Virus record (IMG/VR): IMGVR_UViG_3300028802_000398
DNA from: a virus
DNA length: 64,000 bases
Strand: one strand, 5' to 3'
The translations under genes were made by a program, and so were the position numbers. Below are positions 32,405 to 36,772 of this stretch, one piece after another (positions within the stretch are counted from its first letter, which is position 1; each line of letters opens with the position of its first letter). The notes under the pieces were generated by a model. The model saw only the letters and a list, made by a program, of their open reading frames with translations. It made no database searches and had not been told where the DNA came from.

Positions 32405-32507
32405 CGGCGACACGTTCTCGAATTCCTATATTCAGTTGCCACATCGAGGTTCACTCGCTGTGACACACAGGGCTCGCGTCGGCCTACTTAATTGGCGCGC
32501 AGATCGG

Positions 32508-34391
32508 ATGGGTAAAATGGCAAACGAAAACCTTGGACCGGCAGAGCGCATTCTCGACACCGTGATCGGCTACTCCGACCACTGCGTCCACAACCGCGCA
32601 GGTATTGTGATCCCGGATGTTGGCTCCGCGATCGGAGTGAAGTGGCTTCCGGTCACTCACGTCGTTGAAGACGGGGACAAGGTTGTCTACGAGTTACGCA
32701 AGGTCGGCAAGAAGACTGCCAAGTTCAAGCTCGGCAAGCTCAAGGAGGACGGTCGCGTCAAGGACGTGAATCGGGTCATCGGTCGTTACCAGCCCGCGGG
32801 GCTCTTCGCAGATGTAGCGGTGTGGATGTATCGCCAGGTCGTCGAGGTTTGGAAGCTCGACAATGAGTTCGCGGCCAAGTGGGCATCGCACGAGTTCGTG
32901 CAGCTGCAGGAGCGGCGTGACCTCAAGGTGATCATGGCGGCATTCCTCTTGGTTCAGTCCCGCAAGGGTGACCCGGTGATTGATGCCGGCAAGGTCGCTT
33001 TCTTCGATGAAGACTTGCGAGATGTCGGAGAGGCCATGCTGTTGTTGAGCGGCAAGGACATTAAGGACGTGAAGTCGTTCAACCCGAAGCTTCTGCTTCG
33101 TGTGCATGACGTGTTGATGTTGCCAGGAGTGGCGGCGATCAACCGTGAGCTTGGTTTTGGTCGCTCGGCGCGTAACCCATTCTTGGGCCGTTGGACTAAG
33201 GCGGTAGAGAAGTGGCTTCTCTTCCGTGAGGAAAATCCGCGTCTGCTTGATGGTTTGGTGAAGGCAGGGTTTCGTCGCACGGTGATGGAGTTGGCGCGTC
33301 GTGTTCACTACAAGCCGACCACCCCGCGCTTCTTTGAGGCGCTGCGTTGGAAGCAAGCCCAGGCCAAGGATGGTCGCCGATCGATTGCGATCGGTCAGGC
33401 GGTGCAGGCTGCTGAATCTTGGGAAGGCTTCACCGAGCAACAGATTTGTGAGGCGATCGTCCGCACTAGACCAAACTTCAAGCGCGTGGTTGGGCTTTTA
33501 CCAAAGGGTCAGGGCCTCACCCGTGCGATCGTCGCTGCCGCAATCGAGGTTGGCGCGATGTCTGACAAGGATCTGATCATCGCAACTCCGACTCTTGAGG
33601 AACTTGGTCTCTTGGATGTTCAAGAGGTTCGCGAGCGTTGGGAGCGGGCTATCAAGGCCGCGGAGGATATGCGGGCCGTGAATATCGCGACTCGCGTCAA
33701 GTCCACGGCTACTCAAGAGAAGCTACATGAAGCGGCGGATAACGCCGTCAAGCTAGCTGTCGCCGAAGTTGTCAGGGGTCTCCGCATCTATGTGATCGTG
33801 GATATCTCGGGCTCGATGCAGAATGCGATCGTCGAGGCCAAGGTGTACATCGCCAAGTTCCTGCAGGCGTTTCCACAGGAGCAGCTGCACGTCTCGGTCT
33901 TCAGCACCGCGGGTCGTGAAGTTGAGATCAAGCATGCATCGGCTGCTGGTGTGGAGAATGCGTTCCGCGGCATCTTTGCTGGCGGCGGCACATTGCATGC
34001 GCAGGGCGTCAGGGCTCTGAGCAAGCACAAGCCCAAGGTAGATGAAGACGCGCTGATGATTTTCGTCGGCGACGAAGAAGAGCACTCGACATTCGAGGCA
34101 GCCGTGCGTGACTCGGGTATCAATCCGGTAGCGTTCGGCTTACTCAAGGTGCGTGAGTGCGTGTCGTCTTGTGTGCGCGACACCGCAGCGAGACTAGCAA
34201 TCCCGTGCTTCATGATTGAGGCGCAGACGTTTTCTGATGTCTATGCTATCCCGCGGGTCCTACGTGCATTGATCTCGGCGACCCCAGTGGGTAAGACCAA
34301 GGGCAGCCCGTTGTTTGTCCCCAGGGTCTCCCTGGTAGACACGATTCTGAATACCAAGCTGCTGGTGAAGCCCGTGTGGGCTAGCGCGTGA
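32508..34391 (+). CDS. vWA-domain protein with long helical N-terminus (TROVE/Ro60-like architecture)
   Basis: C-terminal MIDAS VDISGSM, GGT, FVGDEE; basic alpha-helical N-terminal ~430 aa. Confidence 0.75.
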   Translation: MGKMANENLGPAERILDTVIGYSDHCVHNRAGIVIPDVGSAIGVKWLPVTHVVEDGDKVVYELRKVGKKTAKFKLGKLKEDGRVKDVNRVIGRYQPAGLFADVAVWMYRQVVEVWKLDNEFAAKWASHEFVQLQERRDLKVIMAAFLLVQSRKGDPVIDAGKVAFFDEDLRDVGEAMLLLSGKDIKDVKSFNPKLLLRVHDVLMLPGVAAINRELGFGRSARNPFLGRWTKAVEKWLLFREENPRLLDGLVKAGFRRTVMELARRVHYKPTTPRFFEALRWKQAQAKDGRRSIAIGQAVQAAESWEGFTEQQICEAIVRTRPNFKRVVGLLPKGQGLTRAIVAAAIEVGAMSDKDLIIATPTLEELGLLDVQEVRERWERAIKAAEDMRAVNIATRVKSTATQEKLHEAADNAVKLAVAEVVRGLRIYVIVDISGSMQNAIVEAKVYIAKFLQAFPQEQLHVSVFSTAGREVEIKHASAAGVENAFRGIFAGGGTLHAQGVRALSKHKPKVDEDALMIFVGDEEEHSTFEAAVRDSGINPVAFGLLKVRECVSSCVRDTAARLAIPCFMIEAQTFSDVYAIPRVLRALISATPVGKTKGSPLFVPRVSLVDTILNTKLLVKPVWASA

Positions 34392-34403: not shown

Positions 34404-35363
34404 ATGGGATGGAGAGACTTGCTGGAGGCAGAGGGCAGCACGATCGTGTTGCCTTGGGTCGGTGGTAGGTCACTCCGTTCCGGCGCTCGCGTCTGGTATC
34501 TCGATGGCGTGCTGCCGAAGGAGCATGCTTGGGTCAAGTTGCAGTTGAGAGGACGTAGGGCCATTGTTCAGGAGATTTGTTATCCTGAGCCCAGCAACCT
34601 GTTTCGGCGGGTTGTTGGGTACCTGGTTGGCGATCGCTTGATCGACACGGACGGCTACGTCGACCCGGACCCGAAGGTCATTGCCGCTCATTCGGAGAGG
34701 GTGCACCTGATTGATCAGGGATTGGATCGGTTTGTTCGGGTCTCTGCGGGGCGCGCTTACGAGGATGGGCCGCTTGTTTTCATTCAGCAGGAAATGCCAC
34801 TCGGGCCGGAGACGGAAGTGCAGTCGGCTTATCTAGATGACAGACCAACCGTTGACGCGGTGCCCGGCGTCACTCCTGCATTGGACGCGGCCTTTCGCAT
34901 GGCGCGTTGGCAGCGCGTCGAGGCCGAACGCAGACGCGTGGAGTTGGAGGCGCAGCGTCGTAGAGAGGGTGAAGAGAGAGAACGAGAGGCACGTCGCCGG
35001 GAGATTCTCGCGAGGCTTGGGGACGGTGCTGGTCGTCGCGAGATGGCTGCCGTCGATTTTGAGGCGGCGGCGCGGGCGGCGTTGACGGTTGGCGGCGTGA
35101 CGTATTTGGAGCACAGACCATCGCACCGCCAGGGGGAGATGGTGGTGCGCTTCCGGCTCGATGGGCGTCGATTTGAATGCACCTGCGATCGCCACACTCT
35201 CAGGATCCTAGATGCCGGCATCTGTCTGACCGCGCATGGAGACGATGATGATTTTGAACGCGGGACCAAGGGAGACACCCTTTTTACGCTCGAAAGTTTG
35301 CCCGCAGTCATCAGGCAAGCCGACCGGGAGGGGAAGCTTGTTGTGTTTCGTCACGTCGACTGA
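34404..35363 (+). CDS. Putative E2 (UBC-like) domain protein
   Basis: Coiled coil followed by beta-meander ending in ILDAGICL, matching the UBC G-x-I-C-L catalytic motif; operon context. Confidence 0.55.
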   Translation: MGWRDLLEAEGSTIVLPWVGGRSLRSGARVWYLDGVLPKEHAWVKLQLRGRRAIVQEICYPEPSNLFRRVVGYLVGDRLIDTDGYVDPDPKVIAAHSERVHLIDQGLDRFVRVSAGRAYEDGPLVFIQQEMPLGPETEVQSAYLDDRPTVDAVPGVTPALDAAFRMARWQRVEAERRRVELEAQRRREGEEREREARRREILARLGDGAGRREMAAVDFEAAARAALTVGGVTYLEHRPSHRQGEMVVRFRLDGRRFECTCDRHTLRILDAGICLTAHGDDDDFERGTKGDTLFTLESLPAVIRQADREGKLVVFRHVD

Positions 35364-35370
35364 TGATTTC

Positions 35371-35376
35371 GGTGTA
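35371..35376 (+). promoter_or_regulatory. GGTGTA promoter-like motif (representative copy, before JAB)
   Basis: TTCGGTGTAA 10 nt upstream of ATG; the motif recurs before many genes. Confidence 0.55.
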
Positions 35377-35386
35377 ATACAGCACG

Positions 35387-35761
35387 ATGTCCATCGAAGT
35401 CGGCGTACTGGTCAATCTCGATTGCGAGCCTTTTTTTTGGCATCTGCCGGAGGGACGCGAAGTCGCCTCGCTCCCCGACAGTCGAGACCTTTGGAATATC
35501 ATCTGGGATCACAGAGACGAGGTGTTGGGGTTCGCGCATAGTCATCCTGGGTCTGGTGTGCCCGAACCGTCGGAAGAGGATCTGACGACATTTGCGGCGG
35601 TCGAGTCTGGTCTCGGTAAGCGGCTCGTGTGGTGGGTTACGAGCCGTGACGAGTCTATAGAGCTATATTGGCGCGGGCCGGGCAAGCTTGATTATGGCAC
35701 GGTACCGGTGATGTATGAGCCAGAGTGGATGTCGGAGTTGCGGACTCTCTCTCGATTTTGA
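35387..35761 (+). CDS. JAB/MPN metallo-isopeptidase
   Basis: GFAHSHPGSGVPEPSEED = H-S-H-P-x7-S-x2-D JAMM motif. Confidence 0.9.
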   Translation: MSIEVGVLVNLDCEPFFWHLPEGREVASLPDSRDLWNIIWDHRDEVLGFAHSHPGSGVPEPSEEDLTTFAAVESGLGKRLVWWVTSRDESIELYWRGPGKLDYGTVPVMYEPEWMSELRTLSRF

Positions 35762-35772
35762 TTGGAGGATAT

Positions 35773-36036
35773 ATGGAGGAATTTGAAGCTCGCGTTAACG
35801 TCACCTACGCCGGGTCTAACGCAGACCTTCCGGACCCAGTGCCTTTCGATACCGGCGATGCTGTGGTTCGGGAGCTTGTCGAGGAAGCGATCCGAACGGG
35901 AAGCCTTCCTGGGGTCCCGCTGGATAAAGATGTCAGCCTCAGCGACTACGTTGTGGATCGATTCAGTGCGACGACGGAGCGAGGGCATCACGTGATGTTC
36001 TTGAGACCAAAGACGCCGTTCGGCACCGCGTCCTGA
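35773..36036 (+). CDS. Ubiquitin-like (beta-grasp) protein with C-terminal extension
   Basis: 87 aa, RBS GGAGG, ends LRPKTPFG-TAS; lies between JAB and E1. Confidence 0.7.
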   Translation: MEEFEARVNVTYAGSNADLPDPVPFDTGDAVVRELVEEAIRTGSLPGVPLDKDVSLSDYVVDRFSATTERGHHVMFLRPKTPFGTAS

Positions 36037-36068
36037 TGTATTTTCTAGGCTGGGAAGGATGGCACAGG

Positions 36069-36209
36069 GTGCACAGGTATAGCTGTGTTGCCTGCGGTGC
36101 CGTAGTAGAGAGCCCGCACGAGTGGGGCGGCGGACCCCCTCCTAAGTGCCCCGAGGGTTGCCGGTTCGATCCGGAGACAAAGATATGGACAAGACGAAAG
36201 GCGGAATGA
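36069..36209 (+). CDS. 46-aa Zn-ribbon protein (not in the ORF track)
   Basis: MHRYSCVACGAVVESPHEWGGGPPPKCPEGCRFDPETKIWTRRKAE; TGA overlaps the E1 ATG. Confidence 0.55.
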   Translation: MHRYSCVACGAVVESPHEWGGGPPPKCPEGCRFDPETKIWTRRKAE

Positions 36210-36772
36210 AGGTGACTGTTATCGGAATGGGAGCCCTTGGCTCCCATTTCATTTTGTTCGCTCGAAACTTCGCAGAGCTGAAGGGGATCGACGATGGTCG
36301 TGTGAAATCGAAGAGCCCTGTGGCGCAGTTTCACGGCAAGCCGCAAGTTGATCGCGGCAAGGCACAAGCGCTCCAGCAGACCATGCAGTTCTTGTTTGGG
36401 GTCAAGGTCATGGCGGTGCCGCACCGGCTTACCGTAGACAACACTCAGCAATTGCTTGGCGGCGCCGATCTGTTGGTTGACTGTTTGGACAACGCGCCAT
36501 CACGTGGGCTGGTTCAGGCTTTCGCGCGTTCTAGTGGGACTCCATGCTTGCACGGTGCGTTGGCGGCGAACGGGCAATACGGTCGGGTTGTCTGGGACGA
36601 GTATTTTGTGATTGATGGGGCGGCTCCGGGCGCGGCGACTTGCGAGGACGGAGAGCACTTGCCTTTCATCGCTATGGTTTCTTCTCTGTTGTCCCGCGCT
36701 GCTCAAGAGTTCTTGGGTAGCGGGCGCAAGATCGGCTTTGAGATTCATCCTACTGGTGTAGCCAGGACCTAG
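36206..36772 (+). CDS. ThiF/E1-like adenylating enzyme
   Basis: VIGMGALGS nucleotide-binding loop, LLVDCLDN..SR, candidate catalytic Cys in AATCED. Confidence 0.85.
   Translation: MKVTVIGMGALGSHFILFARNFAELKGIDDGRVKSKSPVAQFHGKPQVDRGKAQALQQTMQFLFGVKVMAVPHRLTVDNTQQLLGGADLLVDCLDNAPSRGLVQAFARSSGTPCLHGALAANGQYGRVVWDEYFVIDGAAPGAATCEDGEHLPFIAMVSSLLSRAAQEFLGSGRKIGFEIHPTGVART

Follow-up and report, generated by a model that had tools for sequence, protein, structure and literature searches.

Why does the gene of a small ubiquitin-like (Ubl) protein, lying on phage DNA close to the genes of a JAB peptidase and an E1-like enzyme, continue for three codons beyond the Gly at which conservation of the protein ends? 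The question is raised by a 64,000-nt stretch of DNA from a huge soil phage (IMG/VR record IMGVR_UViG_3300028802_000398), the whole of which is called the window below. The Ubl gene belongs to a conserved cassette with the gene order vWA protein, Cys protein, JAB, Ubl, mini-E1. In the window the following genes make up this region:

32436..34391, plus strand: vWA protein, 651 aa, whose C-terminal vWA/MIDAS domain is matched weakly by the Pfam models VWA_CoxE and VWA_2; first gene of the cassette
34404..35363, plus strand: Cys protein, 319 aa, with an invariant Cys259 and a D[AS]G[IV]C274L motif (alignment A3)
35387..35761, plus strand: JAB/JAMM metallopeptidase, 124 aa (Pfam Prok-JAB, E 8.5e-7, above the cut-off)
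35773..36036 including the stop codon, plus strand: Ubl precursor, 87 aa, predicted beta-grasp
36036..36209, plus strand: zinc-ribbon ORF, 57 aa (CxxC...CPxGC), overlapping its neighbours and translationally coupled to both (TGATG at the Ubl stop, ATGA at the E1 start)
36206..36772, plus strand: E1, minimal MoeB/ThiF-type, 188 aa (Pfam ThiF, E 3e-17), two genes downstream of the Ubl

The Ubl ORF starts with the ATG at 35773, which is preceded by GGAGGA (35764-35769), and the stop codon of the JAB gene lies 11 nt before this start. At the 3' end the frame reads CTT AGA CCA AAG ACG CCG TTC GGC ACC GCG TCC TGA, i.e. LRPKTPFG-TAS-stop, bearing out the first-pass annotation of this DNA, according to which the Gly is not terminal and is followed by Thr-Ala-Ser. 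The stop codon TGA (36034-36036) overlaps the ATG of the zinc-ribbon ORF. Two features at this end are central to the argument:

36022..36024, plus strand: codon of Gly84, conserved end of the mature domain and presumed site of cleavage and adenylation
36025..36033, plus strand: three codons of the tail Thr-Ala-Ser, unconserved and predicted to be removed (pLDDT below 50 at residues 85-87)

It is proposed that the Ubl ORF encodes a pro-form. The JAB/JAMM peptidase would cut the bond after Gly84 and the E1 would adenylate the freed Gly84 carboxylate, after which the Ubl may pass to Cys146 of the E1; for the joint claim of trimming and adenylation, both of which are read from the sequences, we estimate a probability of about 0.7. 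A third step is more speculative, namely that the Ubl could be handed on to Cys274 of the 319-aa protein and from there to some target, perhaps with involvement of the vWA protein. Points counted against the pro-form are the terminus, which is Pro-Phe/Tyr-Gly and not Gly-Gly, the lack of a recognisable E2, and the weak fold matches of the Ubl. Trimming of Ubl precursors by a JAB is a known process, and the tail-trimming step alone would be conventional biology.

The pro-form reading depends on the Gly being shared by the relatives of this Ubl. The 87-aa protein had no match in Pfam, NCBIfam, PHROGs or PADLOC, nor did a profile search against PDB sequences yield any. A word-indexed search detected nine relatives at 52-84% identity with tails of 0 to 28 aa, in which the motif RPKTxxG was invariant, xx being Pro-Phe in nine of the ten sequences when the window Ubl is included. 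When 1.84 billion representative proteins were searched with an HMM, the family grew to 275 clusters (at 50% identity) at E<=1e-3, 181 of them at E<=1e-10. The pattern [RKQ]P[KRQ]xx[FYWLM]G was present in 133 of 160 inspected sequences; the others were mostly one-residue variants of the motif with the Gly kept, and one ended in Ala. RPKTP[F/Y]G is thus near-invariant in the family, almost every member having F or Y just before the Gly. The Gly is invariant in alignment A1, is found in at least 90% of the 90 sequences of alignment A2, and occurs in all 120 distinct locus sequences, a figure with an ascertainment bias because the loci were collected by the pattern LRPKTPF; the unbiased estimate of motif conservation is that of the HMM search. 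The Gly is therefore conserved family-wide, and a comparison of the C-termini of the homologues, which the first-pass annotation had proposed as a check, revealed that conservation stops exactly at this residue and that the tail is variable.

The commonest tail consists of a single residue, and the range is 0 to 170 aa. Among the inspected HMM matches, 13 had no tail, 38 had one residue, about 29 had 2-10 aa and about 53 had 16-170 aa, and the 120 distinct locus sequences gave a similar spread (no tail in 19, a single residue in 47, 2-5 aa in 24, 6-20 aa in 10, and more than 20 aa in 20). No preference was seen in tail sequence except for small residues at the first position, where the 160 inspected sequences had A in 31 cases, none in 13, G in 12, V in 10 and S in 10, followed by others. 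Even the closest relatives of the window, in which neighbouring proteins are 78-89% identical, carry the different tails TAS, AGA, A and GQLDG, with the TGATG junction fixed. Long tails are mutually unrelated, with one similar pair among 37. The tail is probably a mere cap or spacer, which would evolve freely because, as proposed, it is discarded. An origin of the tails from an alternative genetic code was ruled out, since translation with table 11 leaves the long ORFs of the window intact.

In some members whole domains follow the Gly. P0169 (316 aa) is an in-frame fusion of the Ubl, a 12-residue linker and the E1, and in P0166 and P0172 the Ubl is fused to a RyR domain (PF02026). In these fusions the conserved Gly is internal and would therefore become available only once the chain has been cut. 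The precursors of eukaryotic ubiquitin and Ubls likewise carry a short unconserved cap or a fused protein beyond the Gly (polyubiquitin caps, ribosomal-protein fusions, and the tails of SUMO and NEDD8), which a peptidase has to take off before the E1 can act, but they belong to other protein families, whereas the proteins described here have a single terminal Gly and are encoded by phage genes. By analogy, the fusions of Ubl and cargo suggest an independent origin of the ubiquitin-fusion strategy.

Further Ubl fusions, to PF26760 or to short CxxC peptides, were observed in P0168 and at L013:6151-6339, L017:6163-6354 and L029:6151-6285.

The JAB is the obvious candidate for the cleavage. Residues E4, H51, H53, S62 and D65 are invariant in 42 homologues and form a complete JAMM site, and the gene was present in 134 of the 145 loci that were parsed. 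A Cys-protein gene directly adjoining the Ubl gene, without a JAB between them, was found only in L053, L058 and L060/L061, and in all of these the Ubl ends exactly at the Gly. A profile search found no family JAB in the assemblies holding these loci; the sequence of L053 stops 22 nt past the Ubl, and a JAB may be located beyond that point, since in its relative L057 the gene is downstream of the Ubl. The loci fall at three separate places in the Cys-protein tree, and their nearest relatives have a JAB. Three zero tails out of three are suggestive, because only 14 of the 134 loci containing a JAB have a zero tail. The 2-3 independent events are too few for significance (sign test, p 0.25), and the pattern as a whole is suggestive support for JAB-dependent maturation of the Ubl. 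At two other loci, L102 (zero tail) and L137 (tail SRLP), no JAB was found within 1.4-2.4 kb upstream, where inserted genes are located; both contigs are short.

In L137 a 207-aa ORF with the sequence HELGH (HExxH, zincin-like) was observed on the minus strand at 1338-1961, just upstream of the SRLP-tailed Ubl.

From these data the JAB is the probable maturase of the Ubl. The first-pass annotation had held that the adjacent JAB is needed for maturation, and this is supported by the conserved Gly, the variable tail, the complete JAMM site, the synteny and the loci in which the JAB is missing only where the tail is zero; the cleavage itself we infer from them. Experimental precedents exist in bacteria, where BilC was shown to pre-process BilA (PMC10557695) and BubAB is cleaved behind a conserved Gly by the JAB domain of BubCD, which may have no other role (PMC11601596). 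The JAB may also do more than trim. That it is kept in 14 loci with a Ubl already ending at Gly implies either that maturation is not its sole role or that those tails were recently lost. The same 14 loci would fit a JAB that acts solely on conjugates, in the manner of a deubiquitinase, with another host or phage peptidase maturing the Ubl, and cleavage of conjugates is known for Cap3 and BilC (PMC11601596; PMC10557695). We regard such a division of labour as quite improbable, because the only lineages without a JAB at the usual position are those with a zero tail, as maturation predicts, in the bacterial systems it is BilC and BubCD that do the pre-processing (PMC10557695; PMC11601596), and the cassette contains no other conserved peptidase.

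An AlphaFold model of the Ubl, built from a 90-sequence alignment, had a pLDDT of 92.6 and the order strand-strand-helix-strand-strand (strands 5-12 and 15-18, helix 29-42, strands 59-64 and 73-79), followed by a disordered tail. It replaced an earlier model from 10 sequences, which had a pLDDT of 69 and gave meaningless Foldseek matches. Almost all entries in the Foldseek and VIA lists for the 90-sequence model were Ubl, PB1 or RBD beta-grasp domains, although the scores were weak (best Foldseek E 0.05, best Z 4.8). Among the matches were a T. brucei Ubl, FAF1, FAT10, SUMO, NEDD8, ISG15, parkin and MoaD, as well as the Ubl of a bacterial E1-E2-Ubl complex (8tyz_B). The sole strong match was the family member of Virus Rctr197k (BFVD, E 3e-10). 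Because the fold scores are weak, the assignment of a beta-grasp fold is based on the topology of the model together with the uniformity of the match list, which point to this fold.

The top matches were tied at Z 4.7-4.8 and included the UBL of NLE1/Rsa4, which is bound by the MIDAS of MDN1/Rea1 (8ql1, 6qta), and the UBL of WDR12. The first gene of the cassette encodes a vWA/MIDAS protein, and this correspondence may be coincidence.

The function of a beta-grasp protein need not involve its C-terminus chemically. The Ubl could be a non-covalent adaptor whose RPKTPFG sequence docks, for example, on the MIDAS of the vWA protein, as Rea1/MDN1 MIDAS and UBL domains do, with the tail never removed and the JAB and E1 acting elsewhere. 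The vWA protein occurs in 58 of 67 loci and the tied matches include the MIDAS-binding UBLs of NLE1/Rsa4 and that of WDR12, but at the same Z these are tied with many other beta-grasp domains. Docking also leaves unexplained the exact stop of conservation at the Gly, the whole domains behind it, the fusions of Ubl and E1, and the lack of a JAB only where the Gly is terminal. An E1 beside a beta-grasp protein ending in Gly is, moreover, the arrangement that marks activation at the C-terminus (Iyer et al. 2006, PMC1779556), and a purely adaptor role is in our judgement very unlikely.

Under the pro-form reading, a second enzyme must act on the freed Gly, and the E1 of the cassette has the sequence expected of such an enzyme. 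In PDB profile searches it matched MoeB (8e-16), ThiF (4e-13) and Uba4. The residues GxGALGS, D29, K52, D92, D95 and R100 are invariant, and N96 is conserved in at least 90% of the sequences. The protein aligns to residues 32-213 of MoeB, and an invariant Thr-Cys146, carried by a short crossover loop, aligns with the Cys of the 'ALTC' motif in the crossover loop of MoeB; a separate mobile CYS domain was not found.

The relationship to MoeB, ThiF and Uba4, which are the closest solved relatives of this E1, raises the possibility that the Ubl is a sulfur carrier like ThiS, MoaD or QbsE. The JAB would then trim it, the E1 would adenylate it, and a Gly thiocarboxylate would donate sulfur to a small molecule or to a nucleic-acid modification. 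A minimal E1 with no separate Cys domain and the lack of a recognisable E2 would suit this function, and maturation of sulfur carriers by JAMM peptidases has precedent, QbsD acting on QbsE and Mec+ on CysO. ThiS, MoaD, QbsE and CysO end in Gly-Gly, whereas the phage family ends in P-[F/Y]-G and lacks the second Gly. The conserved partners in the phage cassette are a vWA protein and a Cys protein, and the cassette of the window had no match to rhodanese, cysteine desulfurase, ThiG, MoaE or CysM; no genes other than those of the cassette keep their synteny from locus to locus. Fusions of the Ubl to arbitrary proteins, too, are more typical of Ubls of the modifier type. Gene neighbourhoods of ThiS/MoaD, JAB and E1 have been described (Iyer et al. 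2006, PMC1779556), but for the present cassette we consider a sulfur-carrier function unlikely.

If the processed Ubl is instead a protein modifier, the remaining cassette proteins become of interest. When the window proteins were used in tblastn searches of 67 loci, the vWA protein was found in 58, the Cys protein in 66, the JAB in 63, the Ubl in 67 and the E1 in 62. No E2 was recognisable in the cassette by Pfam, NCBIfam or PADLOC. The 319-aa Cys protein is a candidate for a thioester carrier (E2-like) or for a target, judging from its conserved Cys residues. It had no Pfam match in 46 members even at E<=5, none in PADLOC or among PDB sequences, and its matches in the Atlas were at chance level, with scores below 0.8. 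For the vWA protein an internal ATG may be the true start; phmmer detected no relative of it in the PDB, so that identity with Ro60/TROVE is neither confirmed nor excluded.

Two neighbouring ORFs were found not to belong to the core. The zinc-ribbon ORF was ruled out as a core component because it is present in 4 of the 67 loci by tblastn (L001, L002, L014 and L039, the window's own clade), and is thus an accessory gene of this clade. A downstream 157-aa gene was likewise not core (three of the 67 loci).

Among known systems the ISG15-like anti-phage Bil operons of bacteria, types I and II (BilABCD; PMC10557695; bioRxiv 10.1101/2023.09.04.556158), resemble the phage cassette in having a Ubl with residues past the Gly, pre-processing by a JAB and adenylation by an E1, the last two being predicted for the phage proteins. 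Bil belongs to host defence islands, whereas the present cassette is phage-borne and its E1 is a 188-aa MoeB-like core without an inserted CYS domain. A BilB-type E2 was not detectable in the phage cassette, which has the 319-aa Cys protein and the vWA protein instead; the phage Ubl has no sequence relation to BilA, and PADLOC reported no Bil components.

Type I Bub (6E/DUF6527; PMC11601596) is similar in that the JAB cuts after a conserved Gly. In Type II Bub operons the Ubl stands alone and a JAB is usually lacking (PMC11601596); such JAB-less operons with a ready-made Ubl are paralleled by the JAB-less zero-tail loci of the phages. In contrast to the phage E1 with its invariant Cys146, the Bub E1 has no crossover-loop Cys, and Bub forms Tyr/Ser oxyesters (PMC11601596). 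The phage cassette also lacks a DUF6527 protease, and its JAB and E1 are encoded by separate genes.

Sulfur-carrier systems (QbsE/QbsD/QbsC, CysO/Mec+/MoeZ, ThiS-ThiF and MoaD-MoeB) share with the cassette a small beta-grasp protein, a MoeB/ThiF-type E1 and a JAMM peptidase, but differ from it in the Gly-Gly end and in their sulfur-transfer or biosynthetic partners, of which the phages have none that is conserved. The PRTRC_ThiF model scored 21 bits for the window E1 against a cut-off of 144.75, and the Ubl had no NCBIfam match of this type. By these comparisons the phage cassette fits none of the Bil, Bub, PRTRC and sulfur-carrier systems, the E1 without a separate CYS domain setting it apart from Bil. 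A further phage system, TAPI (Ubl) and TAPK (JAB-NlpC) of lambda/T1, combines a beta-grasp protein that has a conserved Gly followed by more sequence with an adjoining JAB predicted to cut it (Iyer et al. 2006, PMC1779556), but it is a tail-assembly system without an E1, in the context of tail morphogenesis. The window JAB has weak PHROG matches to tail proteins of the lambda/T1 type.

A hexanucleotide upstream of the JAB gene had been taken by the first-pass annotation as the JAB's own signal, through which the peptidase could act as a timing switch. The motif is present where it was described, and recurs elsewhere in the window:

35371..35376, plus strand: GGTGTA, 16 nt before the ATG of the JAB gene at 35387
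7587, 25375, 29048, 31514, 35371, 38407, 39236, 53702 and 59342: examples of GGTGTA near start codons

In the window 27 copies of GGTGTA were counted, where 12.8 +/- 3.3 would be expected, and 24 of them are on the plus strand. It lies 14-16 nt before the start codon of at least nine different genes, often preceded by T/C, and the copy in front of the JAB gene is shared only by L001, L014 and L002, the closest relatives. The hexanucleotide is therefore a general motif near gene starts in this phage, and a JAB-specific regulatory signal was ruled out because the same motif precedes at least nine genes. The proposed timing switch therefore loses its basis, and there was no sign that the tail or the JAB is timed separately.

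The distance of GGTGTA from the start codons exceeds that of an ordinary Shine-Dalgarno site, and the motif may be an initiation or promoter element peculiar to this phage.

Co-expression of the cassette genes is the simplest reading of the region, because the gap between JAB and Ubl is only 11 nt, the next genes overlap (TGATG, ATGA), and a consensus scan of the cassette detected no convincing internal promoter or terminator.

The Ubl family is found almost only on contigs of huge phages, which include IMG/VR contigs of up to 618 kb and contigs in MAGs, mostly of Myxococcota. Among 50,697 GenBank phage records a single one contained a family member, KX853510.1 of Virus Rctr197k (L149, 4838-8510). 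In this record the Ubl, which has a 61-aa tail, is annotated as 'hypothetical', the JAB as 'conserved hypothetical' and the E1 as 'thiamine biosynthesis protein ThiF-like'. The window also encodes a phage-type GroEL, RNR, NAD-ligase, a RecD-like helicase and UvsX, and the cassette is located in its replication and nucleotide-metabolism region. A clade of huge phages has this large, unannotated Ubl family among its core genes. In the literature that was searched, no description was found of the family, its P-F/Y-G end, its phage location or its partners (mini-E1, Cys protein and vWA protein).

To our knowledge, experimental work on prokaryotic Ubl conjugation has dealt solely with its part in the defence of bacteria against phages (CBASS Cap2/Cap3, Bil and Bub). 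A broader hypothesis, which we put forward tentatively and with the odds against it, is that huge phages carry a self-contained Ubl conjugation system of their own. It would consist of the mini-E1, a Cys carrier replacing a UBC-type E2, the JAB, the Ubl with its P-F/Y-G end, and a vWA partner that is perhaps Ro60-like, and the Ubl could also serve as a removable N-terminal module for diverse cargo proteins, in the way of eukaryotic ubiquitin fusions. In the course of infection such a system might mark proteins of the host or of the phage, perhaps as a counter to host defence or as a means of controlling an RNA-surveillance complex. The tail of the precursor and the pattern of JAB loss provide a simple, testable handle on how phages use a Ubl system of their own.

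Nineteen of the contigs bearing the cassette came from MAGs (L049-L067), mostly labelled Myxococcota, Polyangia or Kofleriaceae. These are probably phage contigs that were binned with their hosts, which gives a hint at the host range.

It was also observed that the distance from the Ubl stop to the E1 start ranges from 3 to about 5,500 nt (L001-L067). This interval is often occupied by HNH endonuclease-like or other inserted genes, and appears to be a hot spot for insertion.
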